Shown here: in pieces, positions 39,601 to 59,700 of the stretch
Position numbering within the stretch: position 1 is the stretch's first letter
Layout: each line of letters begins with the position of its first letter
Source: Yuukianura sp. NJ FZ-2021
Taxonomy: Eukaryota
Direction of reading: 5' to 3'
DNA: 64,000 nucleotides
Assembly (NCBI GenBank): GCA_046563655.1
Contig: JAJCTO010000013.1
Coordinates: 124,001 to 188,000, forward strand
Program-made: the position numbers and the translations under genes
Notes under the pieces: generated by a model
Database searches by the model: none
The model's input: the letters and a program-made list of their open reading frames with translations, nothing else
What the model was told of the DNA's origin: nothing

Positions 39601-41030
39601 GTTCATTCTCACATTTGCATGTTCATTCTTACAAATTTAATTCGTTTTGCGTCAAAATGGTGCTCGGCATTACCCTGGGTGCGGTATAAAAAACCCAGAT
39701 AAAATTCGAGGCGGAGCGATTAATCCCGACTTTCAAGTCCGCTCTATCCAGCTTTAATGGCGATCTATCCACACCAATTAAACTTGGGGTCCTGCAGTAC
39801 TTTTCAGGAGGATTTCAGAAAAGTAACTCATTTTCACCCGGCATCGTTCCGCACTGAGGTTTTTCGAATGTTTTGTTTTGAAACAAATTTTCATAAATAA
39901 AATTAACGAGACCAGGGACAACGCAGCAATTGAAATTGGGTTCATGTAGCCTTTTTTATGAGGATTTCAATACTGTAGTTGACTTTTACCCATTATTGTT
40001 CCGGAGCGCCACTTTCTTGAATTTGTTGTTTTGAAACATGAATTTTCATAAATAAAGGTAACAAGATGAGGGACGACACAGCAAGTGAAAGTAGATTCCT
40101 GTAGCACTTTTTATGAGGATTTCAAAAATGTAATTTACTTTACGTTCATTCTCACATTTGCATGTTCATTCTTACCAATTTAATTCGTTTTGCGTCAAAA
40201 TTTTGCTCGGCATTACCCTGGGTGCGGTATAAAAACCCCAGATAAAATTCGAGGCGGAGCGATTAATCCCGACTTTTAAGTCCGCTCTATCCAGCTTTAA
40301 TGGCGATCTATCTACACCAATTAAACTTGGGGTCCTGCAGTACTTTTCAGGAGGATTTCAGAAAAGTAACTCATTTTCACCCGGCATCGTTCCGCACTGA
40401 GGTTTTTCGAATGTTTTGTTTTGAAACAAATTTTCATAAATAAAATTAACGAGACCAGGGACAACGCAGCAATTGAAATTGGGTTCATGTAGCCTTTTTT
40501 ATGAGGATTTCAATACTGTAGTTGACTTTTACCCATTATTGTTCCGGAGCGCCACTTTCTTGAATTTGTTGTTTTGAAACATGAATTTTCATAAATAAAG
40601 GTAACAAGATGAGGGACGACACAGCAAGTGAAGGTGGGTTCCAGTAGCACATTTTATGAGGAATTCAGAAATGTAGTTGACTTTTACCCAGCATCGTTCC
40701 GGAATGCATTTCTTTTGAATTTTTTGTTTTGAAACATGAATTTTCATAAATAAAGGTAACAAGATGAGGGACGACACAGCAAGAGAAAGTAGATTCCTGT
40801 AGCACTTTTTATCAGGATTTCAAAAATGTAATTTACTTTACGTTCATTCTTACATTTGCATGTTCATTCTTACAAATTTAATTCGTTTTGCGTCAAAATG
40901 GTGCTCGGCATTGCACTGGGTGCCGTATACCAACCCAAGATAAAATTCGAGGCGGAGTGATTAATCCCGACTTTTAAGTCCGCTCTATCCAGCTTTAATG
41001 GCGATCTATCCACACCAATTAGGGGCGAGT

Positions 41031-41086
41031 TGGCTCAGTGGTTAAGCCATCAATGCTTTTCCACTGGCCGGCCTGGGTTCGCACCC
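41031..41086 (+). promoter_or_regulatory. Internal RNA polymerase III type-2 promoter (A box and B box) of the SINE
   Basis: A box TGGCTCAGTGG at 41031-41041 matches TRGCNNAGYGG. B box GGTTCGCACCC at 41076-41086 has one deviation from GGTTCGANNCC and sits in a T-arm-like stem CTGGG/CCCAG. The spacing is tRNA-like. Confidence 0.85.
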
Positions 41087-41533
41087 AGTCAGCGGGAGAG
41101 GAAAAAGAAGTCGAGGCCGTGGGTCCTCCCTGTCCCGAAGCAGGGAGGCAAGTGCTGGACTTCTGCCTTTCCTGCGGCTGTTGTGCGGACACCCCAAGAT
41201 AAAGGAGAGTGTCGGGGGCACCGCATCTGCAAGAACTGCCTGCTGTGGTCACAGTACCAAGCTGACCTTGAGTCAGAGGTCTGTGATCATCGCATGGAGC
41301 AGGTAAGAGCTTCGCAGATGTTGGTGTTTACTGATTACTACTTCTTGAACCAGTCCATTAAGCAAAAAACACTCATTCAATCTGATTTGTTTATCGAAAT
41401 ACGGACGACCTCCGTAGGGTGATAACATTCAGATTATCATAATGTGTGTTTGCTCAGAAAGGACAAAAAATAACGCTGTTTCTAAAGGGGTTGATGTTGA
41501 AATATTCCATATAAGCGAATGCTCAGCGTGAGT

Positions 41534-41581
41534 CAGTCACCTAAATATAGGTGACTGCTCCCCCCAATAAACATATATATA
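41534..41581 (+). other. SINE 3' terminal module: stem-loop, AATAAA and (AT)n tail
   Basis: CAGTCACCTA-AATA-TAGGTGACTG is a perfect 10-bp stem (41534-41557), followed by CTCCCCCC-AATAAA-C-ATATATATA. Confidence 0.85.
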
Positions 41582-41946
41582 TATCCACACCAATTAAACT
41601 TGGGGTCCTGCAGTACTTTTCAGGAGGATTTCAGAAAAGTAAGTCATTTTTCCCCGACATCGTTCCGCACTTAGGTTTTTCGAATGTTTTGTTTTGAGAC
41701 AAATTTTTATAAATAAAATTAACGAGACCAGGGACGACACAGCAATTGAAATTGGGTTCATGTAGCCTTTTTTATGAGGATTTCAATACTGTAGTTGACT
41801 TTTACCCAGCATCGTTCCGGAACGCCACTTTCTTGAATTTGTTGTTTTGAAACATGAATTTTCATAAATAAAGGTAACAAGATAAGGGACGACACAGCAA
41901 GTGAAAGTGGGTTCCAGTAGCACTTTTTATGAGGAATTCAGGAATG

Positions 41947-44900
41947 GAGAAATATGGATTTCCGGTGAAATCTAATAGCAAATTCGGATTCACCGACTTG
42001 AACTTCATGTGAGCACACTTTCAAAGGTGGGTATTTAGAAAGGCAGTTTTTCTAGAATTTTGAAGAGGGTTAAATTGCTCTGCAAATTCACAAAATGGCT
42101 GTATCTCGAGAAATATGGATTGCCGGTGAAATCTAATTGCAAATTCGGATTCATCGACTTGAAATTGATGTGAGTACACTTTCAAAGCTGGGTATTTAGA
42201 AAGGCAGTTTTTCTAGAATTTTGAAGGGGGTTAAATTGCTCTGCAAATTCACAAAATGGCTGTATCTCAAGAAATATGGATCGCCGGTGAAATCTAATTG
42301 CAAATTCGGATTCACCGACTTGAAATTGATGTGAGTACACTTTCAAAGGTGGACATTTAGAAAGGCAGTTTTTCTAGAATTTGTATGGCGTAAAATTGCT
42401 CTGCAAATTCACAAAATGGCTGTATCTCGAGAAATATGGATTGCCGGTGAAATCTAATTGCAAATTCGGATTCACCGACTTGAAATTGGTGTGAGTACAC
42501 TTTCAAAGGTGGACATTTAGAAAGGCAGTTTTTCTAGAATTTTGTAAGAGGAAAAATTGCTCTGCAAATTCACAAAATGGCTGTATCTCGAGAAATATGG
42601 ATTTCCGGTGAAATCTAATTGCAAATTCGGATTCACCGACTTGAAATTGATGTGAGTACACTTTCAAAGGTGGACATTTAGAAAGGCAGTTTTTCTAGAA
42701 TTTGTAGGGCGTAAAATTGCTCTGCAAATTCACAAAATGGCTGTATCTCAAGAAATATGGATTGCCGGTGAAATCTAATTGCAAATTCGGATTCACCGAC
42801 TTGAAATTGATGTGAGTACACTTTCAAAGGTGGACATTTAGAAAGGCAGTTTTTCTAGAATTTGTATGGCGTAACATTGCTCTGCAAATTCACAAAATGG
42901 CTGTATCTCGAGAAATATGGATTGCCGGTGAAATCTAATTGCAAATTCGGATTCACCGACTTGAAATTGATGTGAGTACACTTTCAAAGCTGGGTATTTA
43001 GAAAGGCAGTTTTTCTAGAATTTTGAAAAGGGTTAAATTGCTCTGCAAATTCACAAAATGGCTGTATCTCGAGAAATATGGATTGCCGGTGAAGTCTAAT
43101 TGAAAATTCGGATTCACCGACTTGAAATTGATGTGAGTACACTTTCAAAGCTGGGTATTTAGAAAGGCAGTTTTTCTAGAATTTTGAAGGGGGTTAAATT
43201 GCTCTGCAAATTCACAAAATGGCTGTATCTCGAGAAATATGGATTGCCGGTGAAATCTAATTGCAAATTCGGATTCACCGACTTGAAATTGATGTGAGTA
43301 CACTTTCAAAGGTGGACATTTAGAAAGGCAGTTTTTCTAGAATTTGTATGGCGTAAAATTGCTCTGCAAATTCACAAAATGGCTGTATCTCGAGAAATAT
43401 GGATTGCCGGTGAAATCTAATTGCAAATTCGTATTCACCGACTTGAAATTGATGTGAGTACACTTTCAAAGGTGGGTATTTAGAAAGGCAGTTTTTCTAG
43501 AATTTTGAAGAGGGTTAAATTGCTCTGCAAATTCACAAAATGGCTGTATCTCGAGAAATATGGATTGCCGGTGAAATCTAATTGCAAATTCGGATTCATC
43601 GACTTGAAATTGATGTGAGTACACTTTCAAAGCTGGGTATTTAGAAAGGCAGTTTTTCTAGAATTTGTATGCCGTAAAATTGCTCTGCAAATTCACAAAA
43701 TGGCTGTATCTCGAGAAATATGGATTGCCGGTGAAATCTAATTGCAAATTCGGATTCACCGACTTGAAATTGATGTGAGTACACTTTCAAAGGTGGGTAT
43801 TTAGAAAGGCAGTTTTTCTAGAATTTTGATGGGGGTTAAATTGCTCTGCAAATTCACAAAATGGCTGTATCTCGAGAAATATGGATTGCCGGTGAAATCT
43901 AATTGCAAATTCGTATTCACCGACTTGAAGTTGATGTGAGTACACTTTCAAAGGTGGGTATTTAGAAAGGCAGTTTTTCTAGAATTTTGAAGGGGGTTAA
44001 ATTGCTCTGCAAATTCACAAAATGGCTGTATCTCGAGAAATATGGATTGCCGGTGAAATCTAATTGCAAATTCGTATTCACCGACTTGAAATTGATGTGA
44101 GTACACTTTCAAAGGTGGGTATTTAGAAAGGCAGTTTTTCTAGAATTTTGAAGGGGTTAAATTGCTCTGCAAATTCATAAAATGGCTGTATCTCGAGAAA
44201 TATGGATTGCCGGTGAAATCTAATTGCAAATTCGGATTCACCGACTTGAAATTGATGTGAGTACACTTTCAAAGGTGGACATTTAGAAAGGCAGTTTTTC
44301 TAGAATTTGTATGGCGTAAAATTGCTCTGCAAATTCACAAAATGGCTGTATCTCGAGAAATATAGATTGCCGGTGAAATCTAATTGCAAATTCGGATTCA
44401 TCGACTTGAAATTGATGTGAGTACACTTTCAAAGGTGGGTATTTAGAAAGGCAGTTTTCTAGAATTTGTATGGCGTAAAATTGCTCTGCAAATTCACAAA
44501 ATGGCTGTATCTCAAGAAATATGGATCGCCGGTGAAATCTAATTGCAAATTCGGATTCACCGACTTGAAATTGATGTGAGTACACTTTCAAAGGTGGACA
44601 TTTAGAAAGGCAGTTTTTCTAGAATTTGTATGGCGTAAAATTGCTCTGCAAATTCACAAAATGGCTGTATCTCGAGAAATATGGATTGCCGGTGAAATCT
44701 AATTGCAAATTCGGATTCACCGACTTGAAATTGGTGTGAGTACACTTTCAAAGGTGGACATTTAGAAAGGCAGTTTTTCTAGAATTTTGTAAGAGGAAAA
44801 ATTGCTCTGCAAATTCACAAAATGGCTGTATCTCGAGAAATATGGATTTCCGGTGAAATCTAATTGCAAATTCGGATTCACCGACTTGAAATTGATGTGA

Positions 44901-47900
44901 GTACACTTTCAAAGGTGGACATTTAGAAAGGCAGTTTTTCTAGAATTTGTAGGGCGTAAAATTGCTCTGCAAATTCACAAAATGGCTGTATCTCAAGAAA
45001 TATGGATTGCCGGTGAAATCTAATTGCAAATTCGGATTCACCGACTTGAAATTGATGTGAGTACACTTTCAAAGGTGGACATTTAGAAAGGCAGTTTTTC
45101 TAGAATTTGTATGGCGTAACATTGCTCTGCAAATTCACAAAATGGCTGTATCTCGAGAAATATGGATTGCCGGTGAAATCTAATTGCAAATTCGGATTCA
45201 CCGACTTGAAATTGATGTGAGTACACTTTCAAAGCTGGGTATTTAGAAAGGCAGTTTTTCTAGAATTTTGAAAAGGGTTAAATTGCTCTGCAAATTCACA
45301 AAATGGCTGTATCTCGAGAAATATGGATTGCCGGTGAAGTCTAATTGAAAATTCGGATTCACCGACTTGAAATTGATGTGAGTACACTTTCAAAGCTGGG
45401 TATTTAGAAAGGCAGTTTTTCTAGAATTTTGAAGGGGGTTAAATTGCTCTGCAAATTCACAAAATGGCTGTATCTCGAGAAATATGGATTGCCGGTGAAA
45501 TCTAATTGCAAATTCGGATTCACCGACTTGAAATTGATGTGAGTACACTTTCAAAGGTGGACATTTAGAAAGGCAGTTTTTCTAGAATTTGTATGGCGTA
45601 AAATTGCTCTGCAAATTCACAAAATGGCTGTATCTCGAGAAATATGGATTGCCGGTGAAATCTAATTGCAAATTCGTATTCACCGACTTGAAATTGATGT
45701 GAGTACACTTTCAAAGGTGGGTATTTAGAAAGGCAGTTTTTCTAGAATTTTGAAGAGGGTTAAATTGCTCTGCAAATTCACAAAATGGCTGTATCTCGAG
45801 AAATATGGATTGCCGGTGAAATCTAATTGCAAATTCGGATTCATCGACTTGAAATTGATGTGAGTACACTTTCAAAGCTGGGTATTTAGAAAGGCAGTTT
45901 TTCTAGAATTTGTATGCCGTAAAATTGCTCTGCAAATTCACAAAATGGCTGTATCTCGAGAAATATGGATTGCCGGTGAAATCTAATTGCAAATTCGGAT
46001 TCACCGACTTGAAATTGATGTGAGTACACTTTCAAAGGTGGGTATTTAGAAAGGCAGTTTTTCTAGAATTTTGTGAAGGGAAAAATTGCTCTGCAAATTC
46101 ACAAAATGGCTGTATCTCGAGAAATATGGATTGCCGGTGAAATCTAATTGCAAATTCGTATTCACCGACTTGAAGTTGATGTGAGTACACTTTCAAAGGT
46201 GGGTATTTAGAAAGGCAGTTTTTCTAGAATTTTGAAGGGGGTTAAATTGCTCTGCAAATTCACAAAATGGCTGTATCTCGAGAAATATGGATTGCCGGTG
46301 AAATCGAATTGCAAATTCGTATTCACCGACTTGAAATTGATGTGAGTACACTTTCAAAGGTGGGTATTTAGAAAGGCAGTTTTTCTAGAATTTTGAAGGG
46401 GGTTAAATTGCTCTGCAAATTCAGAAAATGGCTGTATCTCGAGAAATATGGATTGCCGGTGAAATCTAATTGCAAATTCGGATTCACCGACTTGAAATTG
46501 ATGTGAGTACACTTTCAAAGGTGGACATTTAGAAAGGCAGTTTTTCTAGAATTTGTATGGCGTAAAATTGCTCTGCAAATTCACAAAATGGCTGTATCTC
46601 GAGAAATATAGATTGCCGGTGAAATCTAATTGCAAATTCGGATTCATCGACTTGAAATTGATGTGAGTACACTTTCAAAGGTGGGTATTTAGAAAGGCAG
46701 TTTTTCTAGAATTTGTATGGCGTAAAATTGCTCTGCAAATTCACAAAATGGCTGTATCTCAAGAAATATGGATCGCCGGTGAAATCTAATTGCAAATTCG
46801 GATTCACCGACTTGAAATTGATGTGAGTACACTTTCAATGGTGGACATTTAGAAAGGCAGTTTTTCTAGAATTTGTATGGCGTAAAATTGCTCTGCAAAT
46901 TCACAAAATGGCTGTATCTCGAGAAATATGGATTGCCGGTGAAATCTAATTGCAAATTCGGATTCACCGACTTGAAATTGGTGTGAGTACACTTTCAAAG
47001 GTGGACATTTAGAAAGGCAGTTTTTCTAGAATTTTGTAAGAGGAAAAATTGCTCTGCAAATTCACAAAATGGCTGTATCTCGAGAAATATGGATTTCCGG
47101 TGAAATCTAATTGCAAATTCGGATTCACCGACTTGAAATTGATGTGAGTACACTTTCAAAGGTGGACATTTAGAAAGGCAGTTTTTCTAGAATTTGTAGG
47201 GCGTAAAATTGCTCTGCAAATTCACAAAATGGCTGTATCTCAAGAAATATGGATTGCCGGTGAAATCTAATTGCAAATTCGGATTCACCGACTTGAAATT
47301 GATGTGAGTACACTTTCAAAGGTGGACATTTAGAAAGGCAGTTTTTCTAGAATTTGTATGGCGTAACATTGCTCTGCAAATTCACAAAATGGCTGTATCT
47401 CGAGAAATATGGATTGCCGGTGAAATCTAATTGCAAATTCGGATTCACCGACTTGAAATTGATGTGAGTACACTTTCAAAGGTGGACATTTAGAAAGGCA
47501 GTTTTTCTAGAATTTGTATGGCGTAAAATTGCTCTGCAAATTCACAAAATGGCTGTATCTCGAGAAATATAGATTGCCGGTGAAATCTAATTGCAAATTC
47601 GGATTCATCGACTTGAAATTGATGTGAGTACACTTTCAAAGGTGGGTATTTAGAAAGGCAGTTTTTCTAGAATTTGTATGGCGTAAAATTGCTCTGCAAA
47701 TTCACAAAATGGCTGTATCTCAAGAAATATGGATCGCCGGTGAAATCTAATTGCAAATTCGGATTCACCGACTTGAAATTGATGTGAGTACACTTTCAAA
47801 GGTGGACATTTAGAAAGGCAGTTTTTCTAGAATTTGTATGGCGTAAAATTGCTCTGCAAATTCACAAAATGGCTGTATCTCGAGAAATATGGATTGCCGG

Positions 47901-50900
47901 TGAAATCTAATTGCAAATTCGGATTCACCGACTTGAAATTGGTGTGAGTACACTTTCAAAGGTGGACATTTAGAAAGGCAGTTTTTCTAGAATTTTGTAA
48001 GAGGAAAAATTGCTCTGCAAATTCACAAAATGGCTGTATCTCGAGAAATATGGATTTCCGGTGAAATCTAATTGCAAATTCGGATTCACCGACTTGAAAT
48101 TGATGTGAGTACACTTTCAAAGGTGGACATTTAGAAAGGCAGTTTTTCTAGAATTTGTAGGGCGTAAAATTGCTCTGCAAATTCACAAAATGGCTGTATC
48201 TCAAGAAATATGGATTGCCGGTGAAATCTAATTGCAAATTCGGATTCACCGACTTGAAATTGATGTGAGTACACTTTCAAAGGTGGACATTTAGAAAGGC
48301 AGTTTTTCTAGAATTTGTATGGCGTAACATTGCTCTGCAAATTCACAAAATGGCTGTATCTCGAGAAATATGGATTGCCGGTGAAATCTAATTGCAAATT
48401 CGGATTCACCGACTTGAAATTGATGTGAGTACACTTTCAAAGCTGGGTATTTAGAAAGGCAGTTTTTCTAGAATTTTGAAAAGGGTTAAATTGCTCTGCA
48501 AATTCACAAAATGGCTGTATCTCGAGAAATATGGATTGCCGGTGAAGTCTAATTGAAAATTCGGATTCACCGACTTGAAATTGATGTGAGTACACTTTCA
48601 AAGCTGGGTATTTAGAAAGGCAGTTTTTCTAGAATTTTGAAGGGGGTTAAATTGCTCTGCAAATTCACAAAATGGCTGTATCTCGAGAAATATGGATTGC
48701 CGGTGAAATCTAATTGCAAATTCGGATTCACCGACTTGAAATTGATGTGAGTACACTTTCAAAGGTGGACATTTAGAAAGGCAGTTTTTCTAGAATTTGT
48801 ATGGCGTAAAATTGCTCTGCAAATTCACAAAATGGCTGTATCTCGAGAAATATGGATTGCCGGTGAAATCTAATTGCAAATTCGTATTCACCGACTTGAA
48901 ATTGATGTGAGTACACTTTCAAAGGTGGGTATTTAGAAAGGCAGTTTTTCTAGAATTTTGAAGAGGGTTAAATTGCTCTGCAAATTCACAAAATGGCTGT
49001 ATCTCGAGAAATATGGATTGCCGGTGAAATCTAATTGCAAATTCGGATTCATCGACTTGAAATTGATGTGAGTACACTTTCAAAGCTGGGTATTTAGAAA
49101 GGCAGTTTTTCTAGAATTTGTATGCCGTAAAATTGCTCTGCAAATTCACAAAATGGCTGTATCTCGAGAAATATGGATTGCCGGTGAAATCTAATTGCAA
49201 ATTCGGATTCACCGACTTGAAATTGATGTGAGTACACTTTCAAAGGTGGGTATTTAGAAAGGCAGTTTTTCTAGAATTTTGTGAAGGGAAAAATTGCTCT
49301 GCAAATTCACAAAATGGCTGTATCTCGAGAAATATGGATTGCCGGTGAAATCTAATTGCAAATTCGTATTCACCGACTTGAAGTTGATGTGAGTACACTT
49401 TCAAAGGTGGGTATTTAGAAAGGCAGTTTTTCTAGAATTTTGAAGGGGTTAAATTGCTCAGCAAATTCACAAAATGGCTGTATCTCGAGAAATATGGATT
49501 GCCGGTGAAATCGAATTGCAAATTCGTATTCACCGACTTGAAATTGATGTGAGTACACTTTCAAAGGTGGGTATTTAGAAAGGCAGTTTTTCTAGAATTT
49601 TGAAAGGGTTTAAGTTGCTCTGCAAATTCATAAAATGGCTGTATCTCGAGAAATATGGATTGCCGGTGAAATCTAATTGCAAATTCGGATTCACCGACTT
49701 GAAATTGATGTGAGTACACTTTCAAAGGTGGACATTTAGAAAGGCAGTTTTTCTAGAATTTGTATGGCGTAAAATTGCTCTGCAAATTCACAAAATGGCT
49801 GTATCTCGAGAAATATAGATTGCCGGTGAAATCTAATTGCAAATTCGGATTCATCGACTTGAAATTGATGTGAGTACACTTTCAAAGGTGGGTATTTAGA
49901 AAGGCAGTTTTTCTAGAATTTGTATGGCGTAAAATTGCTCTGCAAATTCACAAAATGGCTGTATCTCAAGAAATATGGATCGCCGGTGAAATCTAATTGC
50001 AAATTCGGATTCACCGACTTGAAATTGATGTGAGTACACTTTCAAAGGTGGACATTTAGAAAGGCAGTTTTTCTAGAATTTGTATGGCGTAAAATTGCTC
50101 TGCAAATTCACAAAATGGCTGTATCTCGAGAAATATGGATTGCCGGTGAAATCTAATTGCAAATTCGGATTCACCGACTTGAAATTGGTGTGAGTACACT
50201 TTCAAAGGTGGACATTTAGAAAGGCAGTTTTTCTAGAATTTTGTAAGAGGAAAAATTGCTCTGCAAATTCACAAAATGGCTGTATCTCGAGAAATATGGA
50301 TTTCCGGTGAAATCTAATTGCAAATTCGGATTCACCGACTTGAAATTGATGTGAGTACACTTTCAAAGGTGGACATTTAGAAAGGCAGTTTTTCTAGAAT
50401 TTGTAGGGCGTAAAATTGCTCTGCAAATTCACAAAATGGCTGTATCTCAAGAAATATGGATTGCCGGTGAAATCTAATTGCAAATTCGGATTCACCGACT
50501 TGAAATTGATGTGAGTACACTTTCAAAGGTGGACATTTAGAAAGGCAGTTTTTCTAGAATTTGTATGGCGTAACATTGCTCTGCAAATTCACAAAATGGC
50601 TGTATCTCGAGAAATATGGATTGCCGGTGAAATCTAATTGCAAATTCGGATTCACCGACTTGAAATTGATGTGAGTACACTTTCAAAGCTGGGTATTTAG
50701 AAAGGCAGTTTTTCTAGAATTTTGAAAAGGGTTAAATTGCTCTGCAAATTCACAAAATGGCTGTATCTCGAGAAATATGGATTGCCGGTGAAATCTAATT
50801 GAAAATTCGGATTCACCGACTTGAAATTGATGTGAGTACACTTTCAAAGCTGGGTATTTAGAAAGGCAGTTTTTCTAGAATTTTGAAGGGGGTTAAATTG

Positions 50901-53900
50901 CTCTGCAAATTCACAAAATGGCTGTATCTCGAGAAATATGGATTGCCGGTGAAATCTAATTGCAAATTCGGATTCACCGACTTGAAATTGATGTGAGTAC
51001 ACTTTCAAAGGTGGACATTTAGAAAGGCAGTTTTTCTAGAATTTGTATGGCGTAAAATTGCTCTGCAAATTCACAAAATGGCTGTATCTCGAGAAATATG
51101 GATTGCCGGTGAAATCTAATTGCAAATTCGTATTCACCGACTTGAAATTGATGTGAGTACACTTTCAAAGGTGGGTATTTAGAAAGGCAGTTTTTCTAGA
51201 ATTTTGAAGAGGGTTAAATTGCTCTGCAAATTCACAAAATGGCTGTATCTCGAGAAATATGGATTGCCGGTGAAATCTAATTGCAAATTCGGATTCATCG
51301 ACTTGAAATTGATGTGAGTACACTTTCAAAGCTGGGTATTTAGAAAGGTAGTTTTTCTAGAATTTTGTAAAGGGAAAAATTGCTCTGCAAATTCACAAAA
51401 TGGCTGTATCTCGAGAAATATGGATTGCCGGTGAAATCTAATTGCAAATTCGTATTCACCGACTTGAAATTGATGTGAGTACACTTTCAAAGGTGGGTAT
51501 TTAGAAAGGCAGTTTTTCTAGAATTTTGAAGAGGGTTAAATTGCTCTGCAAATTCACAAAATGGCTGTATCTCGAGAAATATGGATTGCCGGTGAAATCT
51601 AATTGAAAATTCGGATTCACCGACTTGAAATTGATGTGAGTACACTTTCAAAGCTGGGTATTTAGAAAGGCAGTTTTTCTAGAATTTGTATGCCGTAAAA
51701 TTGCTCTGCAAATTCACAAAATGGCTGTATCTCGAGAAATATGGATTGCCGGTGAAATCTAATTGCAAATTCGGATTCACCGACTTGAAATTGATGTGAG
51801 TACACTTTCAAAGGTGGGTATTTAGAAAGGCAGTTTTTCTAGAATTTTGAAGGGGGTTAAATTGCTCTGCAAATTCACAAAATGGCTGTATCTCGAGAAA
51901 TATGGATTGCCGGTGAAATCTAATTGCAAATTCGTATTCACCGACTTGAAATTGATGTGAGTACACTTTCAAAGGTGGGTATTTAGAAAGGCAGTTTTTC
52001 TAGAATTTTGAAGGGGGTTAAATTGCTCTGCAAATTCACAAAATGGCTGTATCTCGAGAAATATGGATTGCCGGTGAAATCTAATTGCAAATTCGTATTC
52101 ACCGACTTGAAATTGATGTGAGTACACTTTCAAAGGTGGGTATTTAGAAAGGCAGTTTTTCTAGAATTTTGAAGGGGTTAAATTGCTCTGCAAATTCACA
52201 AAATGGCTGTATCTCGAGAAATATGGATTGCCGGTGAAATCTAATTGCAAATTCGGATTCACCGACTTGAAATTGATGTGAGTACACTTTCAAAGGTGGA
52301 CATTTAGAAAGGCAGTTTTTCTAGAATTTGTATGGCGTAAACTTGCTCTGCAAATTCACAAAATGGCTGTATCTCGAGAAATATGGATTGCCGGTGAAAT
52401 CTAATTGCAAATTCGGATTCATCGACTTGAAATTGATGTGAGTACACTTTCAAAGGTGGGTATTTAGAAAGGCAGTTTTTCTAGAATTTGTATGGCGTAA
52501 AATTGCTCTGCAAATTCACAAAATGGCTGTATCTCAAGAAATATGGATCGCCGGTGAAATCTAATTGCAAATTCGGATTCACCGACTTGAAATTGATGTG
52601 AGTACACTTTCAAAGGTGGACATTTAGAAAGGCAGTTTTTCTAGAATTTGTATGGCGTAAAATTGCTCTGCAAATTCACAAAATGGCTGTATCTCGAGAA
52701 ATATAGATTGCCGGTGAAATCTAATTGCAAATTCGGATTCATCGACTTGAAATTGATGTGAGTACACTTTCAAAGGTGGGTATTTAGAAAGGCAGTTTTT
52801 CTAGAATTTGTATGGCGTAAAATTGCTCTGCAAATTCACAAAATGGCTGTATCTCAAGAAATATGGATCGCCGGTGAAATCTAATTGCAAATTCGGATTC
52901 ACCGACTTGAAATTGATGTGAGTACACTTTCAAAGGTGGACATTTAGAAAGGCAGTTTTTCTAGAATTTGTATGGCGTAAAATTGCTCTGCAAATTCACA
53001 AAATGGCTGTATCTCGAGAAATATGGATTGCCGGTAAAATCTAATTGCAAATTCGGATTCACCGACTTGAAATTGGTGTGAGTACACTTTCAAAGGTGGA
53101 CATTTAGAAAGGCAGTTTTTCTAGAATTTTGTAAGAGGAAAAATTGCTCTGCAAATTCACAAAATGGCTGTATCTCGAGAAATATGGATTGCCGGTGAAA
53201 TCTAATTGAAAATTCGGATTCACCGACTTGAAATTGATGTGAGTACACTTTCAAAGCTGGGTATTTAGAAAGGCAGTTTTTCTAGAATTTTGAAGGGGTT
53301 TAAATTGCTCTGCAAATTCACAAAATGGCTGTATCTCGAGAAATATGGATTGCCGGTGAAATCTAATTGCAAATTCGGATTCACCGACTTGAAATTGATG
53401 TGAGTACACTTTCAAAGGTGGACATTTAGAAAGGCAGTTTTTCTAGAATTTGTATGGCGTAAAATTGCTCTGCAAATTCACAAAATGGCTGTATCTCGAG
53501 AAATATGGATTGCCGGTGAAATCTAATTGCAAATTCGTATTCACCGACTTGAAATTGATGTGAGTACACTTTCAAAGGTGGGTATTTAGAAAGGCAGTTT
53601 TTCTAGAATTTTGAAGAGGGTTAAATTGCTCTGCAAATTCACAAAATGGCTGTATCTCGAGAAATATGGATTGCCGGTGAAATCTAATTGAAAATTCGGA
53701 TTCACCGACTTGAAATTGATGTGAGTACACTTTCAAAGCTGGGTATTTAGAAAGGCAGTTTTTCTAGAATTTGTATGCCGTAAAATTGCTCTGCAAATTC
53801 ACAAAATGGCTGTATCTCGAGAAATATGGATTGCCGGTGAAATCTAATTGCAAATTCGGATTCACCGACTTGAAATTGATGTGAGTACACTTTCAAAGGT

Positions 53901-55134
53901 GGGTATTTAGAAAGGCAGTTTTTCTAGAATTTTGAAGGGGGTTAAATTGCTCTGCAAATTCACAAAATGGCTGTATCTCGAGAAATATGGATTGCCGGTG
54001 AAATCTAATTGCAAATTCGTATTCACCGACTTGAAATTGATGTGAGTACACTTTCAAAGGTGGGTATTTAGAAAGGCAGTTTTTCTAGAATTTTGAAGGG
54101 GGATAAATTGCTCTGCAAGTTCACAAAATGGCTGTATCTCGAGAAATATGGATTGCCTGTGAAATCTAATTGCAAATTCGGATTCACCGACTTGAAATTG
54201 ATGTGAGTACACTTTCAAAGGTGGGTATTTAGAAAGGCAGTTTTTCTAGAATTTTGAAGGGGGTTAAATTGCTCTGCAAATTCACAAAATGGCTGTATCT
54301 CGAGAAATATGGATTGCCGGTGAAATCTAATTGCAAATTCGGATTCACCGACTTGAAATTGATGTGAGTACACTTTCAAAGGTGGACATTTAGAAAGGCA
54401 GTTTTTCTAGAATTTGTATGGCGTAAAATTGCTCTGCAAATTCACAAAATGGCTGTATCTCGAGAAATATAGATTGCCGGTGAAATCTAATTGCAAATTC
54501 GGATTCATCGACTTGAAATTGATGTGAGTACACTTTCAAAGCTGGGTATTTAGAAAGGCAGTTTTTCTAGAATTTGTAGGGCGTAAAATTGCTCTGCAAA
54601 TTCACAAAATGGCTGTATCTCAAGAAATATGGATCGCCGGTGAAATCTAATTGCAAATTCGGATTCACCGACTTGAAATTGATGTGAGTACACTTTCAAA
54701 GGTGGACATTTAGAAAGGCAGTTTTTCTAGAATTTGTATGGCGTAAAATTGCTCTGCAAATTCACAAAATGGCTGTATCTCGAGAAATATGGATTGCCGG
54801 TGAAATCTAATTGCAAATTCGGATTCACCGACTTGAAATTGGTGTGAGTACACTTTCAAAGGTGGACATTTAGAAAGGCAGTTTTTCTAGAATTTGTATG
54901 GCGTAAAATTGCTCTGCAAATTCACAAAATGGCTGTATCTCGAGAAATATGGATTGCCGGTGAAATCTAATTGCAAATTCGGATTCACCGACTTGAAATT
55001 GATGTGAGTACACTTTCAAAGCTGGGTATTTAGAAAGGCAGTTTTTCTAGAATTTTGAAGGGGGTTAAATTGCTCTGCAAATTCACAAAATGGCTGTATC
55101 TCGAGAAATATGGATTGAAGGTGAAATCTAATTG
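41947..55134. repeat. Satellite B, left block: 160/161-bp monomers (about 82), with a 14-mer higher-order repeat over roughly 42100-51300
   Basis: GAGAAATATGGAT recurs at 41947, 42108 and onward. The diagnostic variant GTAACATTG occurs at 42871, 45116, 47363, 48324 and 50570 (spacings 2245, 2247, 961, 2246). Confidence 0.97.
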
Positions 55135-55188
55135 TTGTTGTTGTTGTTGTAAGTTTATTGCTCCTTGCGGGCCCAAAGCCCATGGAGC
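55135..55188 (-). other. 3' terminal module of the ORF1-only element: stem-loop, poly(A) signal and (CAA)n tail
   Basis: The minus strand reads GCTCC-AT-GGGC-TTTGG-GCCC-GCAA-GGAGC, then AATAAA (55159-55154), CTTA and (CAA)5. Confidence 0.85.
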
Positions 55189-55528
55189 TCAAAAAAGAAA
55201 TTTAAGCCAATTTATACTTTACAGAGTTCGGGGAGATTAATTTAGAAGTAGACTTTAGTTAGTGTTACCTTTACAAAAAGTTTAAAGTTAATTATAATTA
55301 AAGGTTAATTATTGAAGCCAATCAGTTAATTTAGTGGTAGAAGCCTAACTCATAACTAGTTTACACAAGACTCTATAATATAGTATTTGGGCTGCAAATG
55401 AAATAATAGAGTAAAAAACATCAGTGATTCAAATTAGTTATTCAGCTAACCTTGGTGATACTTATAACAGAGTGGAAATTATGACTAAACTATGAAACAG
55501 AGGGCTATTGATAATATTAACAGATTAT

Positions 55529-56530
55529 CTAACATCGTTTTCTACGATCTCTTAGTAGTGCAACAGCTTCCTTCATTTTTACTTTGTTAAGGTTGCGGCT
55601 AATTTCATCCAGAGTATTATCAGTGACGTCACCGTAGAGATGTGTTGCTTGTTTAACAAAGCCCATCTTTCCATTGTCTGCTACGGCGGCCTTCAATGAG
55701 AGCAGATCCATGAGCGGGTTATGTTTCTTGCTTGATTTGGTCCCGTCAGGCTTCGCTGGTTTTACATATTCAGATTGGGTGAGACTTATGTCGTGGGAAA
55801 CAGATTCTGAACTTTGCTGACTGGACGGTTGGCTAGAATTTCCAAGTTTCTTTTTCCTCTTTCGCTTACACTTTTCCAAAGAACTGGATGTTTGATGACT
55901 CTCCTCGGTTATTGCAACATTAGGTAGAACCAGCCCCTCCTCCAAATCCGGATTTTGGGGGTGGGGCGACAATGGTTTACATTCAGGAGCTTCACTTTCG
56001 TGTGTATGGGTACTTAGGATGTCATCGTTCCTTAGAAGTTCAGCATAGGGTATATTACAGGATGCTGAGATTATGTCACCAACCTTGATGCTGAATGTCG
56101 AAGTAGATGGCTTGCCGTTAATCCTTTGCTCTGGAGTCATATCATCAGAAATGCCGATTTTTGAGCCTTTTAGCAAGTGTCCACGACTAAAAAGTATAGA
56201 TTTCTCTTTTAAAGTTTTCAGCGTAACAAGAGTGGTACCTTTTTTTCCAAACACTTTCACAGCTTCAACCCGAATTCGTATACCTAATTTCTGATGAATC
56301 CACTGTGAAACTGATTTAGTAGAAATTACACTGAGTTCTAGTCCATGAATGAGGATATTAAATTGATTTCCTTTGGATGTTGGAGGGCTACGTAAAAACT
56401 GACCTTGGTTGTTGAATTGATTATCAAATTGAACTTTGACCTTAGAGATGTTTTTCAGTTGTTCGTCCGTAAATCGGTGAGTGTGGAAAACAGAAATTAA
56501 ACTTTTTAGGCAAAAGTTAGCTATTTCCAT
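55529..56530 (-). CDS. LINE ORF1p-like RNA-binding protein (L1/CR1/L2-type RRM region), followed by a low-complexity linker, a basic NLS-like motif and an unrecognised C-terminal region
   Basis: Uninterrupted ATG-initiated 333-aa ORF in AT-rich DNA. Residues 58-136 (NILIHGLE...LGI...TLVTL...K..LF.....LKGSKIGISDDMTPEQR) match the pattern I recall for LINE ORF1 RRM/CTD proteins (Transposase_22-like). KRKRKKK lies at aa 222-228. The assignment is from motif recognition only. Confidence 0.75.
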   Translation of the reverse strand: MEIANFCLKSLISVFHTHRFTDEQLKNISKVKVQFDNQFNNQGQFLRSPPTSKGNQFNILIHGLELSVISTKSVSQWIHQKLGIRIRVEAVKVFGKKGTTLVTLKTLKEKSILFSRGHLLKGSKIGISDDMTPEQRINGKPSTSTFSIKVGDIISASCNIPYAELLRNDDILSTHTHESEAPECKPLSPHPQNPDLEEGLVLPNVAITEESHQTSSSLEKCKRKRKKKLGNSSQPSSQQSSESVSHDISLTQSEYVKPAKPDGTKSSKKHNPLMDLLSLKAAVADNGKMGFVKQATHLYGDVTDNTLDEISRNLNKVKMKEAVALLRDRRKRC

Positions 56531-56704
56531 TGTAGTTGAATGAATCGAAGTGTGATTGATTAGCAGTCGGCGGAGAAAGATTCAACTTTAGTGACCTTAG
56601 GAGTTTGAGTTAAGAGGGAAATCTTATTGACTTGAGCTTGATTTAAGCTTGTAATAAAGATGGGATTCTAATAACCAAGGATTTGTGTCAGAGAGAAATA
56701 GATT

Positions 56705-56738
56705 ACGTCTTGTCGTCTTCGTGACCAAACTCGAACTC
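56705..56738 (-). promoter_or_regulatory. Internal Pol II core promoter (partial Inr plus DPE) at the 5' end of the element
   Basis: The minus strand begins G-AGTTCGAGTTTGGTCACGAAGACGACAAGACGT. With A at 56737 as +1, AGTT fits the Inr half A(+1)KTY, G is at +24, and AGACG is at +28 to +32 (56710-56706), matching DPE consensus RGWYV at the canonical position. Confidence 0.7.
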
Positions 56739-59700
56739 GGTGAAATCTAATTGCAAATTCGGATTCACCGACTTGAAATTGGTGTGAGTACACTTTCAAA
56801 GGTGGACATTTAGAAAGGCAGTTTTTCTAGAATTTTGTAAGGGGAAAAATTGCTCTGCAAATTCACAAAATGGCTGTATCTCGAGAAATATGGATTTCCG
56901 GTGAAATCTAATTGCAAATTCGGATTCACCGACTTGAAATTGATGTGAGTACACTTTCAAAGGTGGGTATTTAGAAAGGCAGTTTTTCTAGAATTTGTAG
57001 GGCGTAAAATTGCTCTGCAAATTCACAAAATGGCTGTATCTCGAGAAATATGGATTGCCGGTGAAATCTAATTGCAAATTCGGATTCACCGACTTGAAAT
57101 TGATGTGAGTACACTTTCAAAGGTGGGTATTTAGAAAGGCAGTTTTTCTAGAATTTTGAAGGGGTTAAATTGCTCTGCAAATTCACAAAATGGCTGTATC
57201 TCGAGAAATATGGATTGCCGGTGAAATCTAATTGCAAATTCGGATTCACCGACTTGAAATTGATGTGAGTACACTTTCAAAGGTGGGTATTTAGAAAGGC
57301 AGTTTTTCTAGAATTTTGAAGGGGTTAAATTGCTCTGCAAATTCACAAAATGGCTGTATCTCGAGAAATATGGATTGCCGGTGAAATCTAATTGCAAATT
57401 CGGATTCACCGACTTGAAATTGATGTGAGTACACTTTCAAAGGTGGGTATTTAGAAAGGCAGTTTTTCTAGAATTTTGTAAGGGGAAAAATTGCTCTGCA
57501 AATTCACAAAATGGCTGTATCTCGAGAAATATGGATTGCCGGTGAAATCTAATTGCAAATTCGGATTCACCGACTTGAAATTGATGTGAGTACACTTTCA
57601 AAGGTGGACATTTAGAAAGGCAGTTTTTCTAGAATTTGTATGGCGTAAAATTGCTCTGCAAATTCACAAAATGGCTGTATCTCGAGAAATATGGATTGCC
57701 GGTGAAATCTAATTGCAAATTCGGATTCACCGACTTGAAATTGATGTGAGTACACTTTCAAAGGTGGGTATTTAGAAAGGCAGTTTTTCTAGAATTTTGA
57801 AGGGGGTTAAATTGCTCTGCAAATTCACAAAATGGCTGTATCTCGAGAAATATGGATTGCCGGTGAAATCTAATTGCAAATTCGGATTCACCGACTTGAA
57901 ATTGATGTGAGTACACTTTCAAAGGTGGGTATTTAGAAAGGCAGTTTTTCTAGAATTTGTAGGGCGTAAAATTGCTCTGCAAATTCACAAAATGGCTGTA
58001 TCTCGAGAAATATGGATTGCCGGTGAAATCTAATTGCAAATTCGGATTCACCGACTTGAAATTGATGTGAGTACACTTTCAAAGGTGGACATTTAGAAAG
58101 GCAGTTTTTCTAGAATTTGTATGGCGTAAAATTGCTCTGCAAATTCACAAAATGGCTGTATCTCGAGAAATATGGATTGCCGGTGAAATCTAATTGCAAA
58201 TTCGGATTCACCGACTTGAAATTGATGTGAGTACACTTTCAAAGGTGGACATTTAGAAAGGCAGTTTTTCTAGAATTTTGTAAGGGGAAAAATTGCTCTG
58301 CAAATTCACAAAATGGCTGTATCTCGAGAAATATGGATTTCCGGTGAAATCTAATTGCAAATTCGGATTCACCGACTTGAAATTGATGTGAGTACACTTT
58401 CAAAGGTGGGTATTTAGAAAGGCAGTTTTTCTAGAATTTTGAAGGGCGTAAAATTGCTCTGCAAATTCACAAAATGGCTGTATCTCGAGAAATATGGATT
58501 GCCGGTGAAATCTAATTGCAAATTCGGATTCACCGACTTGAAATTGATGTGAGTACACTTTCAAAGGTGGGTATTTAGAAAGGCAGTTTTTCTAGAATTT
58601 GTATGGCGTAAAATTGCTCTGCAAATTCACAAAATGGCTGTATCTCGAGAAATATGGATCGCCGGTGAAATCTAATTGCAAATTCGGATTCACCGACTTG
58701 AAATTGATGTGAGTACACTTTCAAAGGTGGACATTTAGAAAGGCAGTTTTTCTAGAATTTTGAAGGGCGTAAAATTGCTCTGCAAATTCACAAAATGGCT
58801 GTATCTCGAGAAATATGGATTGCCGGTGAAATCTAATTGCAAATTCGGATTCACCGACTTGAAATTGATGTGAGTACACTTTCAAAGGTGGACATTTAGA
58901 AAGGCAGTTTTTCTAGAATTTTGTAAGGGGAAAAATTGCTCTGCAAATTCACAAAATGGCTGTATCTCGAGAAATATGGATTTCCGGTGAAATCTAATTG
59001 CAAATTCGGATTCACCGACTTGAAATTGATGTGAGTACACTTTCAAAGGTGGGTATTTAGAAAGGCAGTTTTTCTAGAATTTTGAAGGGCGTAAAATTGC
59101 TCTGCAAATTCACAAAATGGCTGTATCTCGAGAAATATGGATTGCCGGTGAAATCTAATTGCAAATTCGGATTCACCGACTTGAAATTGATGTGAGTACA
59201 CTTTCAAAGGTGGGTATTTAGAAAGGCAGTTTTTCTAGAATTTTGAAGAGGGTTAAATTGCTCTGCAAATTCACAAAATGGCTGTATCTCGAGAAATATG
59301 GATTGCCGGTGAAATCTAATTGCAAATTCGGATTCACCGACTTGAAATTGATGTGAGTACACTTTCAAAGGTGGGTATTTAGAAAGGCAGTTTTTCTAGA
59401 ATTTTGTAAGGGGAAAAATTGCTCTGCAAATTCACAAAATGGCTGTATCTCGAGAAATATGGATTTCCGGTGAAATCTAATTGCAAATTCGGATTCACCG
59501 ACTTGAAATTGATGTGAGTACACTTTCAAAGGTGGACATTTAGAAAGGCAGTTTTTCTAGAATTTGTAGGGCGTAAAATTGCTCTGCAAATTCACAAAAT
59601 GGCTGTATCTCGAGAAATATGGATTGCCGGTGAAATCTAATTGCAAATTCGGATTCACCGACTTGAAATTGATGTGAGTACACTTTCAAAGGTGGGTATT

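Follow-up and report, generated by a model that had tools for sequence, protein, structure and literature searches.

Within the window, that is, the whole 64-kb stretch of DNA that was analysed, positions 55135-56738 are occupied by a 1604-bp insertion, with its sense on the minus strand, in a host sequence that consists of a 160-bp satellite (Table 1). The insertion is flanked on both sides by the 15-nt sequence GGTGAAATCTAATTG, so that the perfect target site duplication (TSD) claimed in the initial annotation is confirmed. Joining both flanks and deleting one copy of the TSD yields an empty site of 321 nt in which the interrupted monomer, and with it an intact satellite dimer, is restored and which aligns over its full length with 8 of the 8 neighbouring dimers listed (93.8-96.9%, with 2 gaps, one of which is due to an extra base in the reconstruction). 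Because the empty site aligns end to end with the neighbouring dimers, the flanking repeat is a true duplication and not a reflection of satellite periodicity. The element has no LTRs, its sole terminal direct repeat being the TSD, and no terminal inverted repeat is found among the 25 inverted pairs listed for it, out of 30. The hallmarks of a non-LTR, target-primed insertion are present, namely a flanking TSD and a simple-repeat (CAA)5 tail at the junction.

Table 1. Features of the insertion and its flanks, in window coordinates
Feature	Position	Strand	Evidence
TSD copy adjoining the 3' tail of the element	55120..55134		15/15 identity with 56739-56753
(CAA)5 3' tail	55135..55149	-	Read directly from the sequence
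3'UTR, 394 nt, GC 0.305, without coding remnant	55135..55528	-	Sense frames inside of at most 27 aa
AATAAA, separated from the tail by 4 nt	55154..55159	-	Read from the sequence
3'-terminal hairpin, 5-bp outer and 6-bp inner stem	55160..55188	-	Folding
Single intact ORF, 333 aa and TAG stop, ORF1p-like, protein P0001	55529..56530	-	Translation, relatives, synonymous excess
C-terminal helical region, codons about 270-333, ending in RDRRKRC	55532..55723	-	tblastn to L001; low-confidence helices
Basic patch KCKRKRKKKLG, codons 219-229, NLS-like by eye, in a low-complexity linker	55844..55876	-	Translation
RRM-fold core, codons 55-135, beta-alpha-beta-beta-alpha-beta	56126..56368	-	AlphaFold2, Foldseek, VIA-align
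5'UTR, 208 nt, no upstream ATG	56531..56738	-	Sequence reading
Promoter-like 5' terminus	56703..56738	-	Likeness to the L002 start and the Drosophila LINE consensus
TSD copy adjoining the 5' end of the element	56739..56753		15/15 identity with 55120-55134

The coding capacity of the element is limited to one intact ORF, the ATG of which lies in the context ACTACAATGG. When all six frames of the 1604 bp are considered, the next-longest stop-to-stop frame spans 81 aa and is antisense; accordingly, both the single 333-aa ORF and the lack of a reverse transcriptase (RT) or endonuclease noted earlier are borne out. The ORF2 that characterizes an autonomous LINE is missing, as judged by the short sense frames inside the 3'UTR. 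A SINE was considered as a candidate and is ruled out by the intact ORF; an Rfam search over 40800-57000 gives no match at E up to 0.1, and ARAGORN gives no match either.

The encoded protein and its relatives

A Pfam search started with the 333-aa protein P0001 identifies no family at E up to 10, and with its relatives P0003-P0011, searched at E up to 1, no family is recognized either, Transposase_22/Tnp_22 included; what lies below the threshold there is unrelated. PDB searches by sequence and by profile detect nothing relevant, at most coiled-coil noise, and the ESM Atlas offers only sub-0.9 leads (Baculo_FP_2nd and Transposase_22). The protein contains no CCHC zinc knuckle of the form CX2CX4HX4C and has only five cysteine residues, at positions 7, 158, 184, 221 and 333.

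The AlphaFold2 model of P0001 has the RRM topology over residues 51-130, with pLDDT values of 70-93 (10-residue block means). Outside residues 55-135 the model is poor (mean pLDDT 51), with low-confidence helices at residues 2-17 and 22-42 and with no convincing coiled coil or C-terminal domain (CTD), nothing of the latter being modelled after residue 138. A Foldseek search identifies human LINE-1 ORF1p as the best 5 of 1745 matches, with E values from 2.3e-4 to 7.6e-4, and a VIA-align comparison of P0001 with 2ykq_A gives a Z score of 9.8 and an rmsd of 3.2 A over 93 aligned residues, generic RRMs trailing LINE-1 ORF1p by less than 1 Z unit. The predicted RRM fold can be regarded as secure, and a specific kinship of the modelled core to LINE-1 ORF1p is only suggestive. 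For the relative P0008, the three best structural rows are LINE-1 ORF1p, with 151 residues, Z scores of 10.5, 10.4 and 9.6 and rmsd values of 11-12 A, and the RRM-CTD structure 2ldy is matched with Z 8.6 over 120 aligned residues. In the P0008 model the RRM is followed by a helix and a beta-hairpin, and the alignment of this protein with L1 ORF1p reaches chain residue 305. The LINE-1-like class of ORF1p, as outlined in the available portion of PMC3905857, combines a coiled coil, an RRM and a CTD. Given the modelled RRM core, the 333-aa protein is predicted to bind RNA. Basic runs similar to the KCKRKRKKKLG patch occur in P0008 and P0003, and the patch might serve as a nuclear localization signal.

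An HMMER search started with P0001 returns seven matches, six of which are credible and some of which are coiled-coil and RRM proteins of the ORF1 type; the seventh, P0002, was discarded as a low-complexity repeat. A word-indexed sequence search started with P0001 finds no relative, and the same kind of search started with the profile A1 retrieves three short ORF1-like proteins only. No relative emerges from protein scans of genome_contigs and viral_contigs, and a search for longer forms in which ORF1 and ORF2 are fused finds none, which is weak evidence.

Two distant relatives reside on metagenome contigs, L001 and L002, with 30-42% protein identity; in both, a short 3'UTR immediately follows the ORF, and neither contains ORF2. 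L002 (1392 bp) starts at the position that corresponds to element position 6 and carries a 295-aa ORF at 94-981, followed by a 3'UTR of at least 411 nt that ends within the hairpin and in which the sense frames do not exceed 56 aa. In L001, where the ORF is degenerate, the 3'UTR measures 300 nt, and a hairpin and a TAA-rich tail are also present; a tblastn search with residues 236-332 of P0001 detects 41% identity (E 8e-12) in this contig, and a scan for frames of at least 60 aa reveals a single one, of 70 aa, across the ORF end. The search for a TSD around the L001 copy yields short repeats at the chance level only, so that the 5' boundary of this copy is undefined.

Termini, copies and coding constraint

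The 5' end of the element was initially described as intact and promoter-like, which the sequence confirms. It starts with an initiator-like sequence, G followed by AGTTCG, at 56732-38, and carries AGACGTAA at element positions 29-36 (56710-56703), where AGACGT occupies +29 to +34. The internal promoters of the Drosophila elements Doc, F, G, I and jockey contain, according to the accessible part of PMC1636488, a downstream element RGWCGT[GT][CT] at about +29 to +36, and the 5' end of the window element resembles them in this motif and its position: AGACGTAA agrees with 6 of the 8 positions of that consensus, a comparison that concerns motif and position only. The agreement of the initiator is partial (AGTTC vs A[GT]T[CT]G).

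An ungapped comparison of the 5' end with the start of the L002 contig shows 23 identities in 29 positions (P about 6e-8). The conserved stretch comprises the first 34 nt, and the remainder of the 5'UTR does not align with L002; where the window element has AGACGTAA, L002 has AGACGTGA, with AGACGT at the same position in both. In three runs of one sample, a variant of the 5'UTR is present in which 56533-56618 are replaced by 10 nt. A scan of viral_contigs with the 15-nt 5' motif finds 82 stretches, none of which extends the match to at least 20 columns and none of which encodes a relative. The motif and its conserved position are compatible with transcription that would be driven by the 5' end of the element itself.

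At the 3' end, the (CAA)n tail, the AATAAA and the stem-loop that had been pointed out are all present. A sixth CAA opens the TSD and is shared by tail and duplication, which creates microhomology to the end of the target at which priming would occur. The AATAAA is not kept in L001, and its role here is putative. The hairpin has a minimum free energy of -17.3 kcal/mol (z -2.96), and 3 of 200 shuffled sequences fold equally well; its motif TCCATRGGC...GCC is common to all three elements (the window element, L001 and L002), and the comparison with L001 includes one compensatory pair, from G-C to A-U. Apart from the hairpin, no alignment is obtained among the three 3'UTRs. The combination of a hairpin with a short-repeat tail directly at the TSD suggests that the 3' end is recognized by the reverse transcriptase of a partner. 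A 563-bp SINE-like insert at 41022-41584 has a 3' end without homology to that of the element, and a partner shared by the two is unsupported.

Contigs assembled from public sequencing runs (4 runs, 2 samples, 2 organisms) contain at least three variants of the element that are 9-12% diverged, and in the contigs of these 4 runs the diverged pieces coexist with pieces that show 0-1 differences from the window; in X1, for example, the interval 56207-56481 is covered by three distinct versions. The match of one 3.4-kb contig stops exactly at 56738, pointing to a second copy with an identical 5' base, and an apparent copy of 160 bp, truncated at its 5' end, has 14 flanking letters repeated on both sides. 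Two other copies found in contigs have non-satellite flanks, so that the possible association of the element with satellite or centromeric DNA is not supported. The family may be small; contig depth is not usable as a measure of copy number. Contig joints that skip about 1620 nt were also considered, and they represent other, empty satellite monomers that are uninformative on polymorphism of the insertion.

The indels in the two main variants sum to -9 and 0, and the reading frame is kept. Among the ORF differences shown, 16 of 29 are synonymous, vs an expected fraction of 0.256 under the observed spectrum (P about 7e-4; rough omega 0.28), a value obtained from 41 of 269 differences, pooled over contigs and runs and not phylogenetically independent. 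A comparison of this dN/dS type among copies had been proposed at the outset, and its outcome is an enrichment of synonymous changes. Given that forms 9-12% diverged, with the frame preserved and a synonymous excess, are present in the source organism, the ORF1-only form is not brand new.

These data bear directly on the possibility that the element is a dead copy of an ordinary autonomous LINE, internally deleted in a single event during or after insertion. Internal deletions are common among LINE copies in general, and there is only one copy of the element within the 64-kb window, both of which speak for such an event. Against this stand the diverged pieces that run across the stop codon into the 3'UTR (e.g., 55417-55586), so that each of the 4 runs contains variants with an identical ORF-end/3'UTR junction, the element-sized relatives without ORF2 on other contigs, the intact ORF together with the perfect TSD, and the enrichment of synonymous changes among the copy differences shown. 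A one-off deletion is very unlikely on this evidence, and the earlier view that the element represents a family is upheld by the shared junction in the diverged variants of the four runs.

A second possibility is that a LINE retrocopied a host gene, for instance a domesticated, ORF1-derived gene like L1TD1, into the satellite, in which case there would be no transposon family. The single ORF, UTRs of mRNA size and the AATAAA are what such a copy would show, and the available section of PMC4161310 documents the domestication of L1 ORF1. The tail, however, consists of (CAA)n, with poly(A) absent, and a conserved hairpin adjoins this simple-repeat tail; the first 34 nt are kept in a 30%-identical relative, with a LINE-type downstream promoter motif in its canonical position; and there are several diverged copies, including the apparent 5'-truncated one with its flanking repeats. 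The origin of the element as a host retrocopy appears extremely unlikely.

Proposed cycle and origin

The best explanation of the locus is that it harbours what is probably a LINE-derived, non-autonomous retroposon, full-length, that has kept an ORF1p-type gene and both ends and has no RT or endonuclease; it would represent an apparently active, compact 1.6-kb family. The initial annotation had proposed a self-transcribing ORF1-only family that borrows ORF2p in trans. The family itself, the ORF1-type RRM core, the synonymous excess and the 5' motif support this proposal in part; transcription from the 5' motif, RNA binding, recognition of the 3' hairpin and the help of a partner in trans are predictions.

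Under the reading as a non-autonomous retroposon, the cycle could proceed as follows. RNA polymerase II would start at an internal promoter of the initiator/DPE type within the first ~36 nt, and the promoter would travel with the transcript. Once translated, the 333-aa protein would coat its own RNA via the RRM core, and an ORF2 protein, presumably borrowed in trans from an autonomous LINE that resides in the genome of the same host, would recognize the 3' hairpin and the (CAA)n tail. This ORF2 protein would nick the target at AATTG^CAAAT, such that the TTG end could pair with the CAA repeats and prime reverse transcription, and a second nick 15 bp off would give rise to the 15-bp duplication. 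Among the contig matches listed, there is no RT-bearing element that shares the 3' end of the window element.

Two histories are compatible with this cycle, and they differ in the past of the element, not in its working. Tentatively, and with a likelihood that we place below even, the window family, L001 and L002 descend from an old, self-perpetuating ORF1-only lineage in which ORF2 was lost before the three split, that is, from a parasite of LINEs outside telomeres that kept the promoter, the L1-like RRM and the hairpin throughout. Alternatively, each host could have seen its own recent loss of ORF2, in the manner of HAL1, so that the three would be separate, short-lived deletion derivatives of related autonomous LINEs that are still extant and have the same ends. 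Precedents for repeated loss are provided by HAL1, which arose several times from L1 (PMC5753468, in the part available), and by the telomeric Jockey-clade elements of Drosophila, which repeatedly lost ORF2 (PMC13534243, likewise in part). Moreover, no shared deletion junction is visible because the three 3'UTRs fail to align outside the hairpin. Conversely, all three elements have a 3'UTR of 300-411 nt straight after the ORF1 stop; no sizeable coding remnant is left in the 3'UTR of either the window element or L002; and the ORF1-only form is already diverged in the source organism, with frame and synonymous excess. Independent loss is a possible origin that, in our estimate, falls somewhat on the doubtful side.

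Comparison with known systems

Full-text literature searches for ORF1-only or ORF2-less non-LTR elements, HAL1 and CAA repeats retrieve no description of the window family, and a full-text search with strings from the satellite sequence finds no match; the family looks unnamed. ORF1-only retroposons amount to a natural experiment on the service that ORF1p renders to LINE RNA, in which the chaperone is kept and the enzyme is outsourced. If the present reading is true, the element adds a compact 1.6-kb family beyond HAL1 and telomeric settings, with a 5' promoter motif and a 3' hairpin that are both conserved and with an ORF1p family that lacks annotation, and offers a tractable system for the study of the cis-preference of ORF1p, trans-complementation by the ORF2p of a partner and 3'-end recognition. 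The general picture of how LINEs work is unchanged by the element. It would be a useful entry in repeat libraries because annotation based on Pfam would miss it.

At the 3' end, a parallel is found in 'stringent-type' pairs of LINEs and SINEs, such as UnaL2 and UnaSINE1 of the eel, which share a 3' stem-loop and a short-repeat tail. The window element similarly has a 3' hairpin and, behind it, a small number of short tandem repeats that run up to the TSD; unlike the SINE of such pairs, it is protein-coding and putatively of the Pol II type. With respect to the protein, human LINE-1 ORF1p (2ykp, 2ykq, 2yko and 2ldy) is the best structural match to the RRM core, at a sequence identity of 12-15%, and in the relative P0008 the likeness covers the helix, the RRM and the start of the CTD. 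By contrast, the P0001 model contains neither a long coiled coil nor a CTD that could be assigned with confidence.

Among ORF1-only elements, HAL1 ('half-L1') is a mammalian non-autonomous LINE derivative that encodes ORF1p only and depends on the ORF2p of a LINE, as stated in the accessible text of PMC5753468. Like HAL1, the window element encodes only a protein of the ORF1p type, the RRM core of which matches L1 ORF1p best in structure. Unlike HAL1, it has no sequence match to L1 ORF1 (Pfam Transposase_22 is absent), it ends in (CAA)n after a hairpin instead of an L1-type poly(A), and its promoter-like 5' end is of the initiator/DPE type, as described for insect LINEs. The satellites, the promoter type and the relatives further indicate that the host is evidently no mammal. 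HeT-A and the other telomeric Jockey-clade elements of Drosophila likewise encode ORF1 alone and depend on other elements for the ORF2 protein, and lineages of this type can be maintained and spawn further ORF1-only lineages (PMC13534243, in the sections available). The window element shares the ORF1-only organization with the HeT-A-type elements. In contrast to the HeT-A Gag and Jockey-like ORF1p, P0001 lacks a CCHC zinc knuckle, and the element differs from HeT-A itself, which forms terminal head-to-tail arrays without TSDs, in being a single TSD-flanked insertion inside a 160-bp satellite and in having no poly(A) tail. The kind of element is already known from HAL1 and HeT-A, and a non-telomeric ORF1-only family is the less usual case.

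Insertion anatomy and termini

The initial annotation described a complete ORF1-only retroposon within a satellite array, and all of its observations on this element stand, namely, the TSD, the (CAA)n tail, the hairpin, the intact ORF, the promoter-like 5' end and the lack of RT or endonuclease (see the table). When the flanks are joined minus one TSD copy, the resulting 321-nt stretch, with one surplus base at the junction, aligns over its full length with each of the 8 neighbouring dimers listed (93.8-96.9%); thus, the 15 bp are a real target duplication and not satellite periodicity. The TSD is the sole terminal direct repeat of the element, and no terminal inverted pair is found among the 25 of 30 pairs listed. 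Across the six frames, no other stop-to-stop frame exceeds 81 aa, and sense frames inside the 3'UTR reach 27 aa at most. The TSD itself opens with a further, sixth CAA, so that the nicked target end (...AATTG-3') could pair with the tail of the element RNA.

PMC1636488 gives a downstream element A/G-G-A/T-C-G-T-G/T-C/T at approximately +29 to +36 in Doc, F, G, I and jockey, and an initiator A/T/G-TCA-G/T-T-C/T-G. Compared with this downstream consensus, positions 29-36 of the window element (AGACGTAA) match at 6 of 8 places, and the same place in L002, a metagenome contig with a distant relative (AGACGTGA), at 7 of 8. The two 5' ends align with 23/29 ungapped identities (P about 6e-8); the remaining 5'UTRs do not align. 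A partial initiator, G-AGTTCG, forms the start of the element, and its first G could be cap-derived. The 5' end fits a putative internal Pol II promoter that would be carried in the transcript; no RNA dataset is listed among the public runs that contain parts of the element. Origin as a retrocopy of a host gene is extremely improbable given that it accounts neither for the tail of CAA repeats nor for the 3' hairpin and the conserved 5' motif of LINE type.

Features of the element, its satellite surroundings, variant pieces in public runs and distant relatives (window coordinates unless stated otherwise)
Feature	Coordinates	Length	Strand	Details
Element	55135-56738	1604 bp	minus (sense)	
TSD copies	55120-34; 56739-53	15 bp		GGTGAAATCTAATTG, 15/15 identical
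5'UTR		208 nt	minus	without ATG
Start codon				ATG, context ACTACAATGG
ORF		333 codons + TAG stop	minus	
3'UTR		394 nt	minus	AT-rich, GC 0.305
3' hairpin		29 nt		-17.3 kcal/mol, z -2.96, 3/200 shuffles as good
3' terminus				hairpin, then CAATAAACTTA, then (CAA)5
Stop-to-3'UTR piece, run X1	55417-55586			
Stop-to-3'UTR piece, run X2	55446-55586			
Stop-to-3'UTR piece, run X3	55417-55549			
Stop-to-3'UTR piece, run X4	55347-55592			
Satellite A	1 to ~41,000			155-bp repeat in ~698-bp units
Satellite B	41,947-64,000			160-bp repeat, 321-bp dimer; copies match at 95-97%
SINE-like insert	41022-41584	563 bp	+	within satellite A unit
TSD of SINE-like insert	41010-41021; 41585-41596	12 bp		CCACACCAATTA, perfect
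L002 (relative)		1392 bp		starts at position 6 of window element's 5' end; 93-nt 5'UTR; 295-aa ORF (P0008) at contig 94-981; 3'UTR at least 411 nt
L001 (relative)		2105 bp		degenerate copy

The encoded protein and constraint on its ORF

The product of the element's ORF, P0001, has no match in Pfam at E-values up to 10, in PDB by sequence, or in the first word-indexed protein search. A full HMMER search against 1.84 billion representatives yields 7 matches, one of which (P0002) was dropped as a low-complexity repeat. The six retained relatives, all from short contigs of 0.9-2.1 kb, are P0003 (40% identity, residues 76-226), P0008 (31%, residues 1-136, beginning, like P0001, with MEVAIFCLK) and four further proteins in which 'NIVIHGLE...ISITDDLTxEER' comes after a coiled coil; none of the six matches the L1 ORF1 Pfam families.

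The AlphaFold2 model of P0001, for which 9 aligned sequences were used, has a mean pLDDT of 51 and is poor as a whole; residues 51-130 have pLDDT 70-93 (10-residue block means) and a beta-alpha-beta-beta-alpha-beta topology. A Foldseek search of PDB started with this model returns the human LINE-1 ORF1p trimer as the best five matches (E 2.3e-4 to 7.6e-4), with ordinary RRMs next. The top VIA-align match is 2ykq_A (Z 9.8, rmsd 3.2 A over 93 residues, model 48-141 versus chain 145-263), followed by generic RRMs at Z 9.0-7.4, so that the top matches are statistically tied. For P0008, the three best VIA-align matches are LINE-1 ORF1p over 151 residues (Z 10.5, 10.4 and 9.6; the rmsd of 11-12 A reflects alignment across several domains), and the RRM-CTD structure 2ldy is matched with Z 8.6 over 120 residues. 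At the model level, the predicted RRM of P0001 is secure, and the predicted coiled coil and CTD are not; a CCHC knuckle is absent. By eye, a basic patch (residues 219-229) and the basic C-terminus resemble elements for nuclear import or RNA binding. We read P0001 as a probable ORF1p of the LINE-1-like class, in the sense of the definition given in the introduction of PMC3905857.

The 41 of 269 differences listed between the element and its variants include 29 in the ORF, of which 16 are synonymous and 16 fall at third codon positions. With an expected synonymous share of 0.256, obtained from the substitution spectrum of public run X1, the observed 16/29 corresponds to P = 7e-4, with omega roughly 0.28; 8/11 of the differences listed for the RRM region are synonymous. 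Among the indels (12 of 32 listed), those in the ORF of one variant are -2, -4 and -3 (net -9), those of another +1 and -1 (net 0), and a minor contig has a single -1. As the counts combine several contigs and runs and lack phylogenetic independence, they are moderate evidence that the ORF is under coding constraint.

Variant copies and distant relatives

For all that lies beyond the window, the evidence is drawn from contigs of public runs, collections of proteins and metagenome contigs. Parts of the element are present in four public runs from 2 samples and 2 organisms (sampled-word shares 0.49, 0.27, 0.16 and 0.07); the run sequences are Logan contigs, the depth of which is not a copy number, and were compared with the element at a likeness of at least 85%. 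Pieces identical to the window or with a single difference (e.g., 257 nt with 0, 256 nt with 1) occur beside pieces diverged by 9-12%, and X1 contains three distinct versions of 56207-56481, with 1, 28 and 29 differences. In 4/4 runs, diverged pieces cross the stop codon into the 3'UTR, which shows that the diverged copies, too, lack ORF2.

A 3.4-kb contig from organism B matches 56192-56738; the match stops exactly at the element's first base, past which the contig has another 2.9 kb unlike the element. A 17.9-kb contig in X4 carries 55155-55294 and then continues with dissimilar sequence, another record stops at the tail (place 55132), and the loose ends of both have 14 letters in common; we read these records as a probable 5'-truncated copy of ~160 bp with its own duplication at a non-satellite site. 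Run contigs also include a 5'UTR variant with 10 nt in place of 56533-56618 and a 3'UTR variant with 152 nt missing. The breakpoint 55194, located just upstream (sense) of the terminal hairpin in the 3'UTR, is common to two joints, 55194 to 55347 (X4) and 55194 to 56060 (X1), and the last ~60 nt (hairpin and tail) may be a separate module joined to varied upstream sequence.

A scan of metagenome contigs identifies two distant relatives, L001 and L002, both with a short 3'UTR directly after the ORF. L002 ends inside a hairpin with the motif TCCATGGGC...GCC, the same as in the window element; a contig of 1358 bp from a different source encodes P0009, a near-identical protein. In L001, the tblastn alignments lie in two frames and include an internal stop, with 42% identity over residues 57-162 and 41% over residues 236-332. 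Some 300 nt separate the ORF end of L001 from a hairpin that contains TCCATAGGC...GCC, and a TAA-rich tail comes next; no 5' boundary of this copy is definable on the contig. Alignment of the three 3'UTRs is confined to the hairpin, in which a G-C pair in the window corresponds to A-U in L001 (one compensatory pair), and each of the three hairpins is more stable than its shuffled counterparts (z -2.2 to -3.0). That the element is a dead one-off deletion is very unlikely, being contradicted by the ORF-end/3'UTR junction common to the diverged copies in all four runs and the relatives; the initial proposal of a family is borne out.

At 1288-1308, in its 3'UTR, L002 carries the 21 nt of the family's 5' terminus (window 56718-56738) in inverted orientation, with 20/22 matches to the window 5' end and 10/10 to L002's own first bases; in the window element, the aligned place is complementary to the first 7 bases over 7 nt only (CGAACTC, 55230-55224). 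The inverted stretch may represent a 5'-3' panhandle or a rearrangement.

Satellite setting and comparison with known systems

The window consists almost wholly of satellite DNA (GC 0.36-0.38 throughout), and satellite B is broken only at 55,134 to 56,738. In satellite A, a unique spacer and a 21-bp doublet (TTTAAGGCCGATCTATCCAGC) accompany ~3.3 copies of the 155-bp unit in the ~698-bp higher-order repeat; units of reduced length (~543 bp) also occur, and heterogeneity rises toward 24,000-41,000. The 12-mer duplicated around the SINE-like insert otherwise occurs once per satellite A unit, intact units being uninterrupted there. The head of this insert has a tRNA-derived look by eye (A-box-like TGGCTCAGTGG, B-box-like GGTTCGCACCC), with no call from ARAGORN or Rfam; at its 3' end, a strong hairpin (z -5.1, 0/200 shuffles) precedes CCCCCCAATAAAC and the (AT)n tail, a layout in common with the ORF1-only element, yet the two are not homologous. 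Just past this insert (41585-41950), satellite A switches directly to satellite B at ~41,940-41,947, and GC skew changes from ~0.05 to ~0.21.

The suggested association of the element with satellite or centromeric DNA is unsupported: satellite B contains one copy, and neither of the two other contexts seen is satellite B. Because the unrelated SINE-like insert is also present in them, the satellites simply accumulate insertions.

Taken together, the element is most likely a non-autonomous ORF1-only LINE derivative. Transcription would start from its own 5' end and the RRM protein would coat the RNA; the ORF2 protein of a putative resident partner LINE would recognise the hairpin and (CAA)n end, nick AATTG^CAAAT and prime on the CAA repeats, resulting in a full-length copy with a 15-bp duplication. 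The anatomy, the fold, the common architecture and the coding constraint are observed; the steps from transcription to priming are proposed. ORF2 was lost either once, long ago, or repeatedly, as described for HAL1 in PMC5753468 and for telomeric Jockey elements in PMC13534243.

The ORF1-only kind is already known from HAL1 and from HeT-A and its relatives; full-text literature searches found no description of a family such as this one, which would be of greater interest if its ORF1-only state proves ancient. Unlike these systems, the window family encodes an L1-like RRM protein that escapes Pfam, combines an insect-LINE-type initiator/DPE 5' end with a hairpin and short-repeat 3' end, and is not telomeric.
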